DNA of 36,800 nt, taken from NCBI GenBank assembly GCA_013152815.1, contig JAADFO010000028.1:1-36800 (forward strand), read 5' to 3'. Of this stretch, positions 14,801 through 22,431 are shown one piece after another. The position numbers and the translations under genes were made by a program. Each line of letters begins with the position of its first letter. The first letter of the stretch is position 1. The notes under the pieces were generated by a model that was not told the origin of the DNA, did not search any database, and saw only the letters and a program-made list of their open reading frames with translations. Origin of the DNA: Nanobdellati archaeon (GTDB lineage Archaea; Nanobdellota; Nanobdellia; Woesearchaeales; JAADFO01).

Positions 14801-16305
14801 TATCGACGAGCGAGATGAGGGCTGCAGAGGACTATGCTGAAAAGCATGGCGTCTCCAGGGCACGGCTCATGCATAATGCAGGGTTCGAATCGTTCATCAT
14901 CCTGCAGGACAGCTATGATCTCACCGACCGGAGGATCCTGGTCGTCTGCTATCACGGGAACAACGGCGGAGACGGTCTCGCTCTTGCCGAGCATCTCATG
15001 GAGGTCTCCAAGGTCACGGTCTTCTTCTTCGGCGACCCGGCGAAGCTGAGCGACGAGGCCCGTTCTCACTTCAACCGTATCGACCAGGCCGAACCGAGCA
15101 TCCTCGTCACTGCATGGGACCAGATAGACCTCGATGACTATGACCTCATCATCGATGCCATGCTCGGCATGGGCATCCATGGTATGCTGAGAGAGCCCTT
15201 CGTCTCACTCATCGAAGCGATCAACGGCTGCAGGGCCAAGGTCGTCTCCCTGGATGTCCCTTCGGGCGTCGATCCGGACAAGAAGGAGACCCCCTCTCTT
15301 CATGTCCATGCAGACCGGATCATCACTTTCCATGACCTGAAAGAAGGGCTCCTTCCCTTCGAGGATTCCACCATCATCGCAGACATCGGCATCCCGCCCT
15401 TCATCGGCGGCATCGGCGGCATCGGCGGGGATGACAAGAAGGCCCTGGTCACCCGACAGCTGGTGCATAACATCCTTCGGCAGAAAGACCAGAGAAGAAA
15501 GAAACATGCGCATAAGGGCGATTTCGGCCATGTGCTGGTCCTCGCAGGAAGCGATGATTTCCACGGAGCTTCCTATCTTGCGGCAGCATCGGCCATCGCA
15601 GCCCTCCGGGCAGGCACCGACCTCGTTACCGTAGCATCGGTGGAGACGGTCTCCCGGTCCATCAATGCCCTCAATGCAGATATCATCACCCTCAAGCTTC
15701 CGGGCAAGGTCCTCGGCCAGGAACATTATGCTGCTCTGTTGCCCTATCTTGAAAAAGCGGACGTGCTGCTTCTGGGACCCGGCATGGGCACAGCAAAGGC
15801 CACACAGTCGTTGGTCCGGATGATCCTGAAGGATTTTCCTGCCAAGGAGAAGGTCATCGATGCGGATGCGCTGAAGATGATATCCCTGCGAGAGGTCTCC
15901 TCCTCCATCCTGACGCCTCATCAGAACGAGCTCCGGGCGCTTCTGGAGCATTCCGGATGCTCGCATGATCCGGCGGATGAGCAGGTGAAAGCGCTCCTGG
16001 GATCCAACGTCCTCCTCATCAAGGGAAATGAAGACGAGATACGTACCTCGTCGGGCTCGCTCTGGAACCGCACCGGGAATCCTGGCATGACCGTCGGCGG
16101 CACCGGCGACCTCCTTGCCGGACTCGTCGCAGGGCTTCTCGCATCTGACCATGGAGACCATGCACGGTTCCTGCTGGCGGCCGCGGCATCCTTCATCCTG
16201 GGTTCCATCGGGGACAAGCTCAAGGAGACCTATGGTTTCGGGTTCATCGCGAGCGATTTCCTCCCTGTTCTCGCGTCGACCTTACACGATCTGGCCCAAG
16301 GATGA
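14797..16305 (+). CDS. nnr: Bifunctional NAD(P)H-hydrate epimerase/dehydratase
   Basis: LMHNAG, GNNGGDG, DAMLGMG, SLDVPSG, HKGDFGHVLVLAGS, GPGMG, VIDADAL, LTPHQNE, GNPGMTVGGTGDLLAG. Confidence 0.95.
   Translation: MISTSEMRAAEDYAEKHGVSRARLMHNAGFESFIILQDSYDLTDRRILVVCYHGNNGGDGLALAEHLMEVSKVTVFFFGDPAKLSDEARSHFNRIDQAEPSILVTAWDQIDLDDYDLIIDAMLGMGIHGMLREPFVSLIEAINGCRAKVVSLDVPSGVDPDKKETPSLHVHADRIITFHDLKEGLLPFEDSTIIADIGIPPFIGGIGGIGGDDKKALVTRQLVHNILRQKDQRRKKHAHKGDFGHVLVLAGSDDFHGASYLAAASAIAALRAGTDLVTVASVETVSRSINALNADIITLKLPGKVLGQEHYAALLPYLEKADVLLLGPGMGTAKATQSLVRMILKDFPAKEKVIDADALKMISLREVSSSILTPHQNELRALLEHSGCSHDPADEQVKALLGSNVLLIKGNEDEIRTSSGSLWNRTGNPGMTVGGTGDLLAGLVAGLLASDHGDHARFLLAAAASFILGSIGDKLKETYGFGFIASDFLPVLASTLHDLAQG
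15402..15428 (+). repeat. 3x CATCGGCGG in-frame tandem repeat (IGG x3) in the NnrE-NnrD linker
   Basis: Read directly: catcggcgg catcggcgg catcggcgg. Confidence 0.9.
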
Positions 16306-16405: not shown

Positions 16406-16759
16406 CTATGAGGCGCGCGTCCGTCGACGGTGATGGATGATCGTCTGTGGAGGAGGTGGAGATGCAGGTTCCACAACAGACGTCTGGACCGCTTTCTTTG
16501 CTGGTCGGGCGACTTTCGCATTCTTTGTCGTCTCCTTCATCTCTGCATTCTCCTCCGGAAGCGCAGCATTGCTCATGATGACGATCTTCTGGGCAGGCAG
16601 CTCTTTCGGGTCGGTGATCGCGGCAACGTTCTGGGCGGGCAATTCCCTGACCAGACGATCATCTTTGGCCAAGGTCCCCGAGACGATGATGTTGCCCACT
16701 ACAAAGAAGAAGACTATCAGCGCGATGCCCACTGAAATGCGCAGTCTCTTGAATCTCAT
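16406..16759 (-). CDS. Single-TM protein with Pro/Ala/Lys-rich linker and C-terminal RTRAS; candidate flavinylation substrate
   Basis: ATGA-coupled to the reductase; MRFKRLR plus TM, 2x ELPAQ, PASPPPP, ends HHRRRTRAS*. The function is inferred. Confidence 0.75.
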   Translation of the reverse strand: MRFKRLRISVGIALIVFFFVVGNIIVSGTLAKDDRLVRELPAQNVAAITDPKELPAQKIVIMSNAALPEENAEMKETTKNAKVARPAKKAVQTSVVEPASPPPPQTIIHHRRRTRAS

Positions 16760-18072
16760 CTGAAATCGAACGCCTCCTCATGGATGTGGCTTCTCCGCAC
16801 CCCGCTTGCCAGAAGCCCTTTGATGATGCCTTCTTTGAACCCTGTCGGTCCGCAGAGGAAGAACTGCTTCTTCTTCAGTGTTCCGCAGACATCACGGACG
16901 GTCTGCGCGGTCATCCTTCCCTGCCTGTGTGATATCCACGGGATGAAGCTGAACCGGGACACCCGTCTGTCGATCTCTGAGAAGAGCGCGCCTCCGATAA
17001 GGTCTTCCTGTCGCTTCACCGAATAGAAGAAGAGGATGCTGCCTTCCAAAGGCGTCCCTGTAAGGGTGATGTCCCTGGCCATTCCAAGGAACGGAGTGAC
17101 GCCGATCCCGCCCGCGATCCATACTCGTTCATCTTGACCATATCTCTTGTGGTCGAATCGCCCGTAGGGGCCCTCTACCGAGACCTTGTCCCCTTCCCTG
17201 AGATGGACAAGTTTTCTGGTGTAGTCACCCAGCTCCTTGACCACGACGACGATGTCATGATCATCCGATCCGGACGCGATGGAGAAGGGATGCGCCTCCT
17301 TCGGGATCTGCTCGTTGTAGAACCGGAGGAAGATGAACTGTCCTGCCTTGTAGGACAGGGGCTTGTGTTCAGGGGTGATGGTGATCTCGAAGATGTCTTT
17401 CTTCCGTCGTATCGACTTGACCGCATAGACCGCGTTCTTGAAGAGCCTGTTCTTGATGAAAAGGCTGTAGGAAAATCCGAACAGGCCGATCGCCGCGACC
17501 ACCGACGCATAGGCATAATAGCCGGCGAAGATGTCATCCTGGGAGATGGTCCCTCTCACAAGGAAGATATGGAGAACCGTGAGGAGGAACATGAGCCCCA
17601 TGAACTCATGGGTGAATTTCCAGCGGTCATACCTCATCTTGGTGAAGAGCGTGATGAAGAGCAAGACGACCATGCCGAGCAGGGCGATGATGCCGAGATT
17701 GACGCTCCAGGAGGAACTGGGAAGAAGATAGGCCGCGGCCTGGTCCATCCTAGACGGGACAAACTTCAGCACCAGGAAGATGGGATGGGCCAGGATGAGT
17801 ATCAAGGCGGTCCCTCCCAGGATCCCATGCGTCATGTACACCCTGTCCAGCCCGCCGAAGACATCTTCGATCCAGGAGATCCGCGCTGAAAGGAGGAAGG
17901 TGAGGGCGAACATGGTCATGGCCACCAGTCCGAACAGCTCTCCCAGGCTATGGGTGATGGAAGCATAGTCGACAAACTCTCGGGTCCCCGGGCCCCATCT
18001 CATCCAGAGAAATACAGGGATCAGTGAGATGAGCAACAATGCTGTCCATCCGGCAGCCGGCTTTGTCCTCAT
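16756..18072 (-). CDS. Ferric reductase-like transmembrane domain plus FAD/NAD(P)H-binding FNR domain (NOX-like)
   Basis: Heme-ligand His pairs (YMTH...LAH; FTH...VLH), GQFIFL, HPFSIAS, VEGPYG, IAGGIGVTPF, LCGP, EEAFDFR. Confidence 0.92.
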   Translation of the reverse strand: MRTKPAAGWTALLLISLIPVFLWMRWGPGTREFVDYASITHSLGELFGLVAMTMFALTFLLSARISWIEDVFGGLDRVYMTHGILGGTALILILAHPIFLVLKFVPSRMDQAAAYLLPSSSWSVNLGIIALLGMVVLLFITLFTKMRYDRWKFTHEFMGLMFLLTVLHIFLVRGTISQDDIFAGYYAYASVVAAIGLFGFSYSLFIKNRLFKNAVYAVKSIRRKKDIFEITITPEHKPLSYKAGQFIFLRFYNEQIPKEAHPFSIASGSDDHDIVVVVKELGDYTRKLVHLREGDKVSVEGPYGRFDHKRYGQDERVWIAGGIGVTPFLGMARDITLTGTPLEGSILFFYSVKRQEDLIGGALFSEIDRRVSRFSFIPWISHRQGRMTAQTVRDVCGTLKKKQFFLCGPTGFKEGIIKGLLASGVRRSHIHEEAFDFR

Positions 18073-18932
18073 ATCTTTCCCTCTTCGATGATCTCCTCAA
18101 AGCCGTTGAGCATGCTCAGGGTACTGTCTTTTCTGACCACCAACGCCCGCACGTCGGGTCGCCCATCAAGGAGAGACTTCCTCTCTTCATCCGATGTGGT
18201 GAACAGGGCGGTCGCATACACATCTGCCTCTTCGGCGGTGGGTGCCACCACGGTGACTGAGGTCGCGTCCTTCTGGTTGACGATATGAGACAGCCCGAAC
18301 TCTCCCACATATTGATGATAGTCTCCTGAGGTCGCGACAGCCTGGTCCTTCAGCCTGATGGAGCAGATGCTCTGTTCCTCCCGCGGATGCTGTATCCCCA
18401 GGACATGGACCTGTCCGCCCTTCACGCAGATATCTCCCCTTGCATCGATGAGAAAAGCGGTGATTCCCCTCTGCTGCAGCGCCTCTGCCAGCCTGTCAAC
18501 CATGTATCCTTTGGCGATGCTTCCCAGATCGACGAGGACGTCCGGATGGGTCAACGTCACCTCATCCCCTTCTATTCGGATATCCTCGTAGGAGCATCCC
18601 TGTTCTGCGCTCTCGCCCTTCTTGCGCAGGAGAATGATCCTTCCCAACGTTACATCATAGCTTCCCCGGGTCTTCCTGCTGAACAGCAGTGCCTTCTGCA
18701 GCACATCCAGCAGTTCTCCAGAGACCCTGGCCTTCCTGGCCTGGTTGAGCCTGGAGAGTTCGCTCCAGGGGTCATAGATGTTGAAGATCCTCTGCAGACG
18801 CAGAGCCTCCCTGTAGACGTCTTTCATCACTTCTTCAACCGGATGTTGAGATGCACCATAGACCAGAAAATCTATCTTTCCTCCGAAAAGCTCTTTGCTG
18901 ACGGTGATCGGCCCTGTTCTCGACAGTGTCAT
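18069..18932 (-). CDS. apbE: FAD:protein FMN transferase (ApbE family), no signal peptide
   Basis: SELSRLN, GSYDVTLG, DLGSIAKGYMVD, GIQHPR, ATSGDY, SHIVN, SVTVVAPTAEEADVYATAL. Confidence 0.92.
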   Translation of the reverse strand: MTLSRTGPITVSKELFGGKIDFLVYGASQHPVEEVMKDVYREALRLQRIFNIYDPWSELSRLNQARKARVSGELLDVLQKALLFSRKTRGSYDVTLGRIILLRKKGESAEQGCSYEDIRIEGDEVTLTHPDVLVDLGSIAKGYMVDRLAEALQQRGITAFLIDARGDICVKGGQVHVLGIQHPREEQSICSIRLKDQAVATSGDYHQYVGEFGLSHIVNQKDATSVTVVAPTAEEADVYATALFTTSDEERKSLLDGRPDVRALVVRKDSTLSMLNGFEEIIEEGKI

Positions 18933-18942
18933 CTCTCATCAT

Positions 18943-20679
18943 TCATCGAGAAACTTTCTTAAATCTTGTGGAACTGCCTTTCCTGAGCCTGCTCCCTGCC
19001 CGGTCCAGCGCGGCCATGCTCTCCTCGTGTTCTTTGATGAATGCGGCCACCTCGCCCCGGTGTCTCTCCTGCTCCTCCATCCCCCGGGTCACTGCCTGGT
19101 CGATGTTCTGGACGACCTTGCCGATCCGTGCATCCATGGTCTCTATGAATCCGAATGCGCTGTTGTTGAGGCGCTCCAGGAAATCGGACCGGATCCTGCC
19201 GGCGTTCATGTCCAGCTGCTGGGCGACATTCCCCTCGATTTGCTTCCAGAGCATCTTCCTGAAGGCGAACTTCGGCATCAGGAGCCTGAGCTCGTCGCCA
19301 AGAAGACGGAACATCTCATCTATCCTGTAATCCAGGGCGCTCTCCAGGGTGAAGACGTCCCCTGTCGGCAGATGCCCGATGTCTGTCTCGAAGAGGGTGG
19401 AAGAACGCTCCCTGATCCTCTCGATAAGACCGTTGGTCGTCTCGGAGAACCGTCTCACGATGTTCTCGAAACGTCCTCGGACCTTCTTCTCTTCCTCGGC
19501 TCTCCATGGTTCGAAGAACTCCTGCATCATCCCGAGGTACATCCTCTGGACGTGTTCCAGAAGCTGTCTGTTCGAAGACCCTGCCATCTTCCGGTAGGCC
19601 TTTCTCAGCTTCTCCAGCAAAGGTGCATGGTTCTTCTTCATGAATGCCCGGAGGTCTTCATCCAGCATCTCCATGATCCTTTCGATCTCTGCCCTGATGA
19701 GCGGTGCTGCGTCCTGCTGCTCCTCCCTGATCCTTCTCGCCGTCTCCCTGAACGCTTCACGTCTTCGTCCGGTCTCTTCAAGGGGCATCTGCGCCACCCT
19801 GATGCTGAGCGCATGGGCATTCCTCGCCTCTTCGACGATGCCCAGCAGACGCCTGTTCAGCGATTGCAGGAGTATCTCCCCTTTCTCTTCCAGGAAGAAG
19901 GCGGACAGGATATCCTTGAATCCTTCGATGTTGCTCGACGTTTTCTTCCCGTTGAGCGCGAGCTTCGCCGAGACCGGCGAGATGGCGACGGGTTCGCCGA
20001 GCTCCTTCTCCAGGGTCCTGCTGTTGAACCCGACGATCTCCTCCTGTTCTCCGGACGACAGATAGTCGATCTTGTTCAGCACGAAGAAGATCTTCGGGAC
20101 CTCTCTCTTCACCTCTTTGAGGAAGTCTATCTCGTTCTGGCTTACCGGCGGGTCTGCCGAGAGCAGGAAGATGGCTGCATCGATACGCTTCAGATACCCA
20201 TAGGTCATGGCCGTGTTATGGAGAAAGGTCGAGCCGATGCCGGGTGTGTCTATGAGGGAGATGCCTTCCTGGAGGTAGGGTGAAGGATGACCTATCTTAA
20301 CGAGCAATACCTGCTTCTGGTTCTTCGGGTTCTCCTTCTCGGTGATGTAGGCGTGAAGCTTATCGAGGGTGATGATCTTCTCGGTCCTGTCAAGGAAGAT
20401 GACCCGGATGTTCTCCTCTTCCGCATAGCTGATGATGGTGATGATCGATGTGAGCGGGACGATGGCCGTGGGAAGGAGCGCTTTTCCCAGCAGGGCGTTG
20501 ATGAAGGAGGTCTTCCCCCTCTTGAACTGTCCCACCACTGCCAGGTTGAACTTCCCTTTGCTGAGCTTGTCCTTGAGGGTGTCGAGTTCCTTTCTCTCCT
20601 CCGGACCGTCGACCAGCTTCCTGATGCGGTCTATCTGTTCCTCGACCAGCCTCGTCTGCATCCCGTATCGGTCGGTCAT
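18943..20679 (-). CDS. Bacterial-type dynamin-like GTPase
   Basis: G1 GQFKRGKT, G2 LPTAIVPLTS, G3 DTPG, G4 NKID, PVSAK, long helical C-terminal stalk; start at ATG 20679 coupled (ATGA) to the upstream stop. Confidence 0.9.
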   Translation of the reverse strand: MTDRYGMQTRLVEEQIDRIRKLVDGPEERKELDTLKDKLSKGKFNLAVVGQFKRGKTSFINALLGKALLPTAIVPLTSIITIISYAEEENIRVIFLDRTEKIITLDKLHAYITEKENPKNQKQVLLVKIGHPSPYLQEGISLIDTPGIGSTFLHNTAMTYGYLKRIDAAIFLLSADPPVSQNEIDFLKEVKREVPKIFFVLNKIDYLSSGEQEEIVGFNSRTLEKELGEPVAISPVSAKLALNGKKTSSNIEGFKDILSAFFLEEKGEILLQSLNRRLLGIVEEARNAHALSIRVAQMPLEETGRRREAFRETARRIREEQQDAAPLIRAEIERIMEMLDEDLRAFMKKNHAPLLEKLRKAYRKMAGSSNRQLLEHVQRMYLGMMQEFFEPWRAEEEKKVRGRFENIVRRFSETTNGLIERIRERSSTLFETDIGHLPTGDVFTLESALDYRIDEMFRLLGDELRLLMPKFAFRKMLWKQIEGNVAQQLDMNAGRIRSDFLERLNNSAFGFIETMDARIGKVVQNIDQAVTRGMEEQERHRGEVAAFIKEHEESMAALDRAGSRLRKGSSTRFKKVSR

Positions 20680-21509
20680 CCTGCTCGACGCTCCTCGCTG
20701 CCTTTTGTTGCTCCTTCCTTGTCGCTCAACCATTTCAGTATCCTTATCGCATGATAGGTCGATTCCAGCGTCGGTACCGTCGTGCTCTGCCTGCCGAAAC
20801 CGCCGTTCTTTGCCCTGCACCGTTCCACGAACCGGATACATGCCTGTTCCTTTTCCGGCCGTTGCCCCAGTTCGACGAGCGCTTCGACCGCAAGGCAGGT
20901 CTCTTCCAGAAAGGACGGCGCTCCCTTCTCGGTGAACGAGAATCCGCCATCATGCCCCTGGAACCGCTTGATGCGCCGGGCCATACTGGCCATGGCCATG
21001 CCATCATCCAGGATTCCCTGTCTCCTGTCGGCTATCGCTGCATAGCAAAGATCGCTGAGGAGATCCTCTTCTCCGGCGATGCCTGCGTCCTGGTTCTTGA
21101 AGCTTTGCTTTCTGAGGGAGCGCTTCAATGCCGGATCCTCGACGATGCTCAGGATCTTTGCTCGGTAATAGGCTGTCTGCGGTCCGATACGCTTCTTCCT
21201 TGACAGGTCTCTTGACAGGGCCATTGTCAGAGTCTCTGGCTCAGGCCATAGGGTATGCATCCGGTGTGTCCTGGCCAGATGCGCCAACCGGTAGAGCTGC
21301 TTCACCTGGCGAGTCTTCACTGAACGCAGGAAGTCCTCGGCATGATCTTCCATGCCCGATATCTCCAGCTCATGGGCTATCCGGAGGGCGAAATAGGTGT
21401 CCTCCAATGTGGCCGGCGCTTCATGGGCAAAGCTGAAGCCACCGTCCTTCTGCCTGCGCGCGAGGAGGAAGCGGCGGATGCTTGTCCTGTCTATGATGTC
21501 CTTACCCAT
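20676..21509 (-). CDS. Prenyltransferase/squalene-cyclase repeat (alpha/alpha barrel) protein
   Basis: Three repeats: RQKDGGFSF...TLEDTYFAL; FQGHDGGFSF...LEETCLAV; CRAKNGGFG...TLESTYHAI. AGGTGA RBS before ATG 21509. Confidence 0.82.
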   Translation of the reverse strand: MGKDIIDRTSIRRFLLARRQKDGGFSFAHEAPATLEDTYFALRIAHELEISGMEDHAEDFLRSVKTRQVKQLYRLAHLARTHRMHTLWPEPETLTMALSRDLSRKKRIGPQTAYYRAKILSIVEDPALKRSLRKQSFKNQDAGIAGEEDLLSDLCYAAIADRRQGILDDGMAMASMARRIKRFQGHDGGFSFTEKGAPSFLEETCLAVEALVELGQRPEKEQACIRFVERCRAKNGGFGRQSTTVPTLESTYHAIRILKWLSDKEGATKGSEERRAG

Positions 21510-21956: not shown

Positions 21957-22228
21957 CACACCAACCGGAACATCACCTGGAAGATGATGACCACGATGGC
22001 TGTCATCGCCACTCCCATGATGGTCGCGTTCTTCACGCTCAGGGCGATCCTTTTCTGCCTCTCCATCTTGGGGAAGTGCAGATAGGTCTGAAGAAAGGTC
22101 ATGATCCCGATGATTGTTCCGCCAATCACTCCAAACGCCATCTCGATCAGATATGCCTGCACAGGCTTCACCCTTAAGAAGAAGTCATCAGCTGAAGCGG
22201 TTTTAGCGTGAGCCGAGGCGGACTTCAT
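21956..22228 (-). CDS. Small 2-TM membrane protein, first gene of the minus-strand run
   Basis: ATATATAAAG box at about 22255-22264 on the minus strand and ATG at 22228; two hydrophobic segments flank YLHFPKMERQKR. Confidence 0.65.
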   Translation of the reverse strand: MKSASAHAKTASADDFFLRVKPVQAYLIEMAFGVIGGTIIGIMTFLQTYLHFPKMERQKRIALSVKNATIMGVAMTAIVVIIFQVMFRLV

Positions 22229-22431
22229 CACCTTCCATCCCTGACTGGTGTCCGCTTTATATATTTTGCTTTCTTCAGGGTCAATATGGGCGCCTATGCC
22301 GCGGTCTCCTTTAGTCTTATTGTGATATTCCTTTCTCTTCTTAAAAGAATAGCTAAGATTTATAAAGAGTGACACAACTATGCCACCCAAATATTATTGA
22401 TTTGTGCTTTAAACACGGAGTGTGAAAAACA

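Follow-up and report, generated by a model that had tools for sequence, protein, structure and literature searches.

A conserved apbE, NOX-type reductase and membrane tail module of Woesearchaeales with a candidate C-terminal flavin acceptor motif

Organization of the apbE locus

Three adjacent genes of a Nanobdellati archaeon from the order Woesearchaeales are the subject of this work: apbE, which codes for a predicted flavin adenine dinucleotide (FAD):protein flavin mononucleotide (FMN) transferase, a gene for a NOX/MsrQ-like membrane reductase, and a gene for a small protein, here called the tail protein, that ends in T-R-A-S. They are located on contig JAADFO010000028.1 (C28) of the assembly GCA_013152815.1, which is 1.49 Mb long and 90.8% complete; the whole stretch of DNA that was analyzed, positions 1 to 36,800 of this contig, is referred to below as the window. 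In a preliminary description made from the letters of the window alone, the three genes were proposed to encode a flavinylation and electron-export system in which the terminal Ser of the tail protein carries FMN. The three genes are a conserved, translationally coupled module with the following features:

18069..18932 (-): apbE, signal-less class IIa FAD:protein FMN transferase, 287 aa (Pfam PF02424, E 5.5e-48)
16756..18072 (-): NOX/MsrQ-like reductase, di-haem membrane domain plus FAD/NAD(P)H domains, 438 aa (Pfam PF01794, PF08022/PF00970, PF00175)
16406..16759 (-): tail protein, 117 aa, with an N-terminal membrane helix, an Ala/Pro/Lys-rich linker and the end ...RRRTRAS-stop (no Pfam family)
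16409..16420 (-): T114-R115-A116-S117, candidate FMN acceptor motif in which the acceptor would be Ser117 (codons ACG CGC GCC TCA, then TAG, to 16406)
18069..18072 (-): ATGA overlap of the apbE stop and the reductase start (from the sequence)
16756..16759 (-): ATGA overlap of the reductase stop and the tail-gene start (from the sequence)

The minus-strand open reading frames (ORFs) and both ATGA overlaps are present as the preliminary description had reported, and the coordinates of most other loci of the same type (type A, see below) include the 4-nt overlap between the reductase and tail genes. The reported absence of [S/T]GA[S/T] from the three proteins was reproduced by a script scan, in which the only [ST]xA[ST] strings were SIAS at residue 264 of the reductase, a general flavin motif of the FNR family, and the terminal TRAS. 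A canonical FMN-binding domain is likewise missing from the three proteins, for which Pfam returned ApbE, the reductase domains and nothing for the 117-aa protein. The sequence of the latter and a one-helix AlphaFold2 model agree with its description as a membrane anchor followed by a Pro/Ala/Lys tether and the RRRTRAS end. The assignment to a DPANN archaeon also holds, as the nearest loci come from records of Woesearchaeota, Nanoarchaeota or Bilamarchaeum.

Conservation of the tail protein and its C-terminal motif

Full-length orthologues of the reductase were identified in two genomes among 60 relatives (61% and 59% identity), and in both of them apbE precedes the reductase gene and a small gene that overlaps it follows, with the C-terminal ends ...FRARAS and ...RRRTRAS. 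The family census combined a word-based protein search (18 matches) with fetched loci, of which 36 came from genome contigs and 47 from metagenome contigs, together with another 29 stretches taken from the order's genomes. Assignment to class IIa required an E-value below 1e-60 against a three-member profile and gave 63 ApbE loci, 12 of which end before the tail position, so that 51 were evaluable. A tail gene was defined as a downstream ORF on the same strand, coding for 60-210 aa with an N-terminal membrane helix and the end [STA][RKHGS]AS-stop. Such a gene is present in 48 of the 51 evaluable loci (47 by script, plus L091, whose tail fell outside the helix filter and was recognized from its sequence), and the conservation of the terminal motif in syntenic homologues, on which the preliminary description had made its proposal depend, was thereby found. 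Among the loci surveyed, the tail occurs only with class IIa ApbE.

After contigs reached twice were merged, 49 unique tails remained. In their sequence logo the last residue is Ser and the preceding one (position -1) Ala in all 49. Position -2 is Arg in 44 tails, His in two, and Lys, Gly and Ser in one each (the tail of L104 ends TSAS); position -3 is Thr in 44, Ser in four and Ala in one; the residue preceding the four-residue motif is mostly Arg or Val. The tail of L096 (3054-3311, +) ends YHPYMVSGAS-stop and has the canonical [S/T]-G-A-[S/T] at the extreme C-terminus, so that, as it reads, this end is a bridge between T-R-A-S and the known ApbE site. At L077 (3808-4182, +), the reading frame passes through ...HHQRRTVPLK... 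and extends for 20 codons, while another frame ends ...CAS-stop, a one-base frameshift that is either real or an assembly error.

Twelve further proteins were obtained in a search of 5.8 billion proteins; 11 of them are tails, ten ending TRAS and one TAAS (P0014), with Ser last in all 11 and no Pfam family or name among them. A search of the ESM Atlas returned only scores below 0.9, to unnamed clusters, which serve as leads only.

On these counts, the C-terminal motif is conserved far beyond chance. The linkers of the 49 unique tails, which are disordered or coiled-coil, do not align. The codons of the motif vary across tails, with all four Ala codons, all six Ser codons, all six Arg codons and the three stop codons in use, so that it is the peptide, rather than the DNA, that is under selection. 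Of the 11,584 ORFs of at least 40 aa in the archaeon's genome, 32 end in [ST]xA[ST], and among these only the tail gene has an N-terminal membrane helix. The AlphaFold2 model of the tail, built from 29 sequences, contains one helix (residues 2-35, predicted local distance difference test 90-98) and coil elsewhere, which argues that the protein is without a folded flavin-binding domain. Judged by these sequences, the tail family is defined by its two ends, the membrane helix and ...A-S-COOH.

Two classes of ApbE and the search for another substrate

An in-frame TGA is located two codons 5' of the apbE start codon, because of which the product cannot carry a leader. The same holds for the class: a lipobox or hydrophobic N-terminus was found in none of 39 class IIa sequences, which have a median of nine residues before the first strand, while a lipobox is present in 28 of 30 ApbE proteins of the lipoprotein class. 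A leader is typical of ApbE without being universal, and a cytosolic Klebsiella enzyme has been noted (Fan and Fraaije 2025, PMC12052999). In an alignment that used structure 6nxj as the His-lacking comparison, the catalytic His, the Ser of ATSGDY and the Asp of EAD of the window ApbE match those of Vibrio cholerae ApbE (6nxi), the His corresponding to V. cholerae His257. The three residues, H216, S202 and D237, are invariant in the 39 class IIa sequences, and the window ApbE looks active.

The census of the order covered 301 genomes, 60 of which have ApbE; it included three unpublished genomes (G134, G209 and G211), all of the lipoprotein/Rnf type, and the statements about the tail are independent of them. 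The two classes are apart in their Pfam ApbE scores, about 240-300 bits for the lipoprotein class and about 130-165 bits for the window class. FMN_bind is present in 33 of the 301 genomes, and 31 of these 33 have a lipoprotein-class ApbE; the remaining two, without one, are 84% and 75% complete. Class IIa ApbE is present in 18 genomes (about 6%), of which 15 are without FMN_bind and the other three also carry a lipoprotein-class ApbE. According to these profile matches, FMN_bind/Rnf is paired in this order with the lipoprotein class of ApbE and the tail with the signal-less class. At the one locus of the former kind that was checked, L201 (G178:C2:119500-131500), a lipoprotein-class ApbE adjoins a complete rnfCDGEAB cluster.

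The order contains a third, signal-less group of ApbE-like proteins, with E-values of 1e-18 to 1e-27 to the window-class profile; neither reductase nor tail was found near its members (L154-L158, L160-L163, L166, L168, L169 and L175). The class IIa gene of locus L172 is convergent with an H+-pyrophosphatase-like gene and stands beside a poly-ferredoxin. Among relatives from outside the order, protein P0052 from a metagenome-assembled genome (MAG) labelled Kerfeldbacteria, of the Candidate Phyla Radiation (CPR), is 52% identical to the window's ApbE, and others are labelled Micrarchaeia and Nanoarchaeia. Class IIa ApbE may thus reach beyond Woesearchaeales.

Other candidate substrates were sought throughout the genome of the archaeon at its 90.8% completeness. 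No match to FMN_bind (PF04205) was obtained at E <= 0.1, NqrB/RnfD, DUF3570 and FMN_red were not found, and DUF2271 reached E 0.09 at best. The pattern D..[ST]GA[ST] does not occur among the genome ORFs of at least 80 aa. A canonical FMN-binding substrate elsewhere in the genome, which the preliminary description had named as a competing explanation for ApbE, was thus not found. A Flavodoxin_4 homologue on contig C4 was rejected, as it has an ordinary TGKS phosphate loop with no motif insertion. The possibility that the tail gene is a truncated FMN_bind gene was also rejected, since about 100 nt separate its stop from a convergent gene ending at 16305. The reductase was rejected as a general ApbE target because it has no ApbE-specific xA[ST] site: S267 of its HPFSIAS is equally conserved where ApbE is absent (a set that included L089, L097, L099, L101 and L108, in which ApbE is possible beyond the contig ends) and is missing from the split variants with a dehydrogenase-only protein.

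Predicted topology of the tail

The tail is predicted to lie with its N-terminus inside and its C-terminus outside. The net charge flanking the helix averages +2.65 on the N-terminal side versus +0.12 on the C-terminal side and is higher on the N-terminal side in 43 of the 49 tails; the helix resembles a signal anchor. Tat export was rejected, as N-termini such as MRFKKLR and MKIK have no twin arginine. The linkers are rich in Thr, Gln, Pro, Ala, Ser and Asn, with a single Cys across all 49, and are probably N-glycosylated: they contain 86 N-x-S/T sequons versus 56.5 +/- 6.5 in shuffled linkers, a number reached in 0 of 2000 shuffles, in a test that takes no account of relatedness and in which the reversed motif scores 67. 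One part of the preliminary proposal, that the tail is the ApbE substrate and T-R-A-S a variant motif, gains from the conservation of the motif and from the lack of another substrate. That this ApbE has no signal peptide had escaped the preliminary description, and a simple scheme in which an extracytoplasmic ApbE works beside its substrate does not stand in that form, given a class without leaders and a tail predicted to end outside.

Reductase and locus architectures

Pfam assigned to the reductase Ferric_reduct (PF01794, E 2.3e-14), FAD_binding_8/6 and NAD_binding_1 (PF00175, E 1.3e-06). In an alignment of three sequences, His82/His96 and His155/His168 are invariant, and we take their bis-His spacing to be NOX-like. 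The protein is accordingly predicted to be a NOX-type enzyme with a ferric reductase domain (FRD) followed by FAD and NAD domains and with two bis-His pairs.

The loci with class IIa ApbE have three architectures. Type A, that of the window, consists of apbE, the fused reductase and the tail. In type B, a protein with three transmembrane (TM) helices is inserted between reductase and tail, and the tail linker is also coiled-coil-like. Type C is split and has genes for a small 4Fe-4S ferredoxin (Fer4_15), for a soluble FAD/NAD protein (about 215 aa), for ApbE and for a separate Ferric_reduct protein, with the tail gene after these; seven helices, four His and, at the C-terminus, a coiled coil can be read from the sequence of the Ferric_reduct protein. 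What types A to C have in common is a signal-less ApbE together with a di-haem domain, an FAD/NAD module and a tail.

The 3-TM protein of type B (L171:6038-6607, +; L167:2167-2730, -; L103-L115) has a coiled coil, an acidic C-terminus (...DEREDDD) and no Pfam family. Type C loci often begin with a secreted protein of His/Asp/Glu repeats (DDHEDDHEDDH...) with a hydrophobic C-terminal end (L177:3208-3795, +; L178:3712-4407, -; L181:2632-3219, +), followed by the 4Fe-4S ferredoxin of about 76 aa. These first genes are hints of metal handling and of ferredoxin as a second electron donor.

ApbE was not found at 18 more distant reductase loci (L056-L073, from CPR bacteria, Crocinitomix, Mucispirillum and Sporolactobacillus), at four distant metagenome reductase loci or at L109, and none of 22 ApbE-less reductase-homologue loci has a tail. 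At the Wolfebacteria-type (CPR) and Sporolactobacillus loci, the product of the gene that follows the reductase has two Cyt-b5 domains (E 1e-18 to 1e-45) and is anchored in the membrane or through a lipid, and an extracytoplasmic electron carrier therefore occupies the position of the tail gene there. The Cyt-b5 partners of the CPR homologues end acidic (...DEFDD, ...DDDEDDD). The acidic ends of these proteins and of the type B partners could serve in the binding of cations such as iron or, alternatively, in pairing with the basic tail.

The module is also present at L041, L042 and L044, in MAGs labelled Anaerolineae or Methanosarcinales, with 59-68% identity to the window reductase; mis-binning or mislabelling is the likely origin of these host labels, and L044 is the same stretch as a contig of the relative G002. 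In the window, a dynamin-like GTPase gene (18943-20841) ends 10 nt before the apbE start (gap 18933-18942), and the genes are closely spaced from a fluoride riboswitch upstream on the same strand (RF01734, 39.9 bits, 22172-22241, -) down to the tail gene. Because of this close gene order and the 10-nt spacing, the module may share a transcript with the fluoride-switched operon in this genome. In the two genomes with orthologues, synteny does not extend to the genes upstream of the module.

Proposed mechanism and alternative explanations

We consider it on balance probable that the 117-aa protein, which has no recognizable fold, is the substrate of ApbE and bears FMN as a phosphoester on Ser117, T-R-A-S being a variant of [S/T]-G-A-[S/T]. 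The motif can be read as an ApbE-like site because Ala at -1 and Ser or Thr at -3 (48 of 49 tails) match the canonical motif, in which the last residue is the acceptor. ApbE would transfer FMN from FAD to Ser117. Since ApbE is leaderless, FAD is cytoplasmic and the tail is predicted to end outside, this would take place in the cytoplasm, at the end of an unfolded chain, before the tail threads through the membrane. Such an order of events is the least secure step of the mechanism, and it would explain both the location of the motif at the extreme C-terminus and the lack of a folded FMN-binding domain. For electron transfer, NAD(P)H would reduce FAD, electrons would cross the membrane via the two haems, and the outer haem would reduce the FMN tethered outside. 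Being flexible and probably N-glycosylated, the linker would bring the flavin within reach of an acceptor outside the cell, for which Fe(III) or another oxidant is the most likely candidate, with iron reduction or regeneration of NAD(P)+ as the outcome. Fe(III) is our first guess in view of the proteins rich in His/Asp and the acidic tails that occur in types B and C, and of the connection with iron that has been published for MsrQ-like clusters, and regeneration of NAD(P)+ is the likely gain.

Several observations weigh against this reading. ApbE is predicted to be cytoplasmic and the tail end outside, on opposite sides of the membrane unless modification comes before export, and to our knowledge flavinylation preceding export is unprecedented. 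The Gly at -2 of the canonical motif is replaced by Arg in 44 of the 49 tails, and a Gly-to-Ala exchange has been found to halve flavinylation (PMC12052999). At -6, where the canonical motif has Asp, the eight commonest residues (R, T, P, K, V, Q, S and A) account for 45 of the 49 tails, and Asp is not one of them. Three of the 51 evaluable loci are exceptions, namely L077 with a frameshifted tail, L086 with a broken reductase, and L172 (G055:C16:2300-10558), where a class IIa ApbE stands alone; neither reductase nor tail was detected near it, and no convincing tail was found elsewhere in this genome, which is 95% complete. The surveyed loci are, moreover, relatives and not independent samples, a reservation that extends to the excess of sequons.

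Some of these points would suit a tail with a structural or regulatory role as a reductase subunit, like that of p22phox in NOX2, with R-T-R-A-S as a docking or recognition element for the envelope, the acidic tail of a partner, a kinase or a protease. ApbE would then serve elsewhere, by handling FAD/FMN for the dehydrogenase domain or by flavinylating an unrecognized target. A cytoplasmic ApbE and an exported tail end would pose no difficulty here, nor would a motif without the canonical Gly and Asp or the presence of class IIa ApbE without a tail in G055; conservation of the N-terminal helix is good, which would be natural for a membrane partner, and the acidic end of the type B 3-TM protein could pair with the basic tail. 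We nevertheless hold this explanation to be unlikely. Charge docking does not need the look of an ApbE site that is given by the invariant Ala and Ser, the Ser or Thr at -3 and the one SGAS end, and tails do not accompany the ApbE-less reductase homologues. An alternative target is also hard to name, since no single Ser/Thr site is shared by every ApbE-linked reductase, SIAS being general and absent from the dehydrogenase-only variants, and no known substrate family is present in the genome.

It is less probable still that the tail is flavinylated and its C-terminus stays in the cytoplasm, where FMN would sit at the interface of dehydrogenase and haem or would anchor the soluble dehydrogenase of the split variants. 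This would place the acceptor on the side of ApbE and FAD, the strongly basic last residues favour retention inside, the dehydrogenase protein of type C has no membrane anchor of its own, and Escherichia coli MsrQ binds FMN on its cytosolic side (PMC12525009). Against it stand the positive-inside rule, by which 43 of the 49 tails have the N-terminus inside, and the Thr/Gln/Pro/Ser/Asn-rich linkers with their surplus of sequons. The fused and the split haem domains alike keep four His, so that no inner-haem slot is free for a flavin, the bacterial proteins in the analogous position are exported cytochrome b5 proteins, and the coiled coils of the type B and C partners are predicted outside from loop charges. 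Finally, we regard as highly improbable that the terminal Ser bears another modification (phosphate, glycan or lipid) or that the small ORF is not a real gene. R-x-R-x-S does resemble the sites of basophilic kinases, but the module has no kinase and always has ApbE, and the ORF can be taken for a gene because it is in frame, translationally coupled and variable in length with an invariant end in 49 unique homologues.

If FMN transfer to the tail is combined with the complete export scheme, the picture becomes that of a signal-less ApbE that flavinylates the last residue inside the cell and of a glycosylated, fold-less "flavin on a string" that is then exported and takes electrons from a NOX-type di-haem reductase to a host cell, to iron or to other oxidants; many orphan leaderless ApbE proteins would be explained in the same way. 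This wider proposal is tentative, and we consider it possible though on the whole doubtful. The cell of the archaeon is without a periplasm, and an FAD exporter is not known for it; modification before export would be a new way of placing a flavin outside the cell. Woesearchaeota with small genomes are usually described as fermentative; if the proposal is true, they would gain a membrane module for electron export or iron reduction in about 6% of the sampled genomes (18/301).

Comparison with known flavinylation systems

ApbE family proteins install FMN on RnfG and RnfD in the Rnf and Nqr complexes. These systems use the lipobox class of ApbE, folded substrates and the canonical motif, and they occur in the same order while being absent from the window's genome. 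Among prokaryotic NOX enzymes, SpNOX works alone and reduces O2. SpNOX and the ApbE-less homologues have in common with the window reductase the FRD-FAD-NAD architecture and four His ligands; the partner of the ApbE-less homologues is a carrier of haem b5, whereas that of the window reductase would be an FMN on a string.

In the ApbE substrates described in the sources consulted (FMN_bind, NqrB/RnfD, DUF2271, DUF3570, Flavodoxin_4 and FMN_red), the flavin lies within or beside a folded domain. The tail, if it is a substrate, would be an acceptor found in nature that lies at a C-terminus outside any domain and has Arg where Gly is canonical; it would widen the specificity of ApbE and provide [T/S]-R-A-S-COOH as a new pattern for motif searches. 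The canonical motif is given as D-x-x-[S/T]-G-A-[S/T], with the last residue as the acceptor and only minor effects of an Asp-to-Ala exchange (PMC12052999). A close analogue of the proposed site is the flavin-tag (Tong et al. 2021, as reviewed in PMC12052999), a peptide of seven residues that works best at protein termini. Like the end of the tail, it is a short unstructured peptide at a protein terminus, with Ala before the acceptor Ser/Thr; such a peptide is enough for ApbE, and placement at the C-terminus gives the best result. The flavin-tag is man-made and canonical, whereas the tail is natural, has Arg for Gly and lacks the Asp. In FMN_red, a Ser on an unstructured C-terminal extension is flavinylated, for which co-expression and mutation to Ala provided the evidence (Huang et al. 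2024, PMC11334425). The flavin bends back to occupy a conserved flavin-binding site in the folded domain of FMN_red, in contrast to the tail, which has no such domain.

In the searched literature on ApbE, ferric reductase/NOX and C-terminal flavinylation in Woesearchaeota, DPANN and other archaea, domain-less tails are not described; Supplementary file 1 of PMC8238504 could list related archaeal clusters. The nearest published systems are the MsrQ-like clusters (Meheust et al. 2021, PMC8238504), in which apbE accompanies a PF01794 di-haem protein, often fused to PF00175, and for which a path from NAD(P)H through the haems to an extracytosolic flavin and a role in iron reduction were suggested (PMC8238504; models in PMC11334425). 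As described there, the clusters include an FMN_bind (PF04205) protein, are mostly actinobacterial and were selected by a filter for signal peptides or lipidation (PMC8238504). The window cluster has apbE, PF01794 and PF00175 in common with them. It differs in the absence of FMN_bind from the genome, the leaderless ApbE, the domain-less T-R-A-S protein and the DPANN host, and it fails the signal-peptide/lipidation filter and would have been left out of that survey. We regard the module as a new form of MsrQ-like flavinylation cluster.

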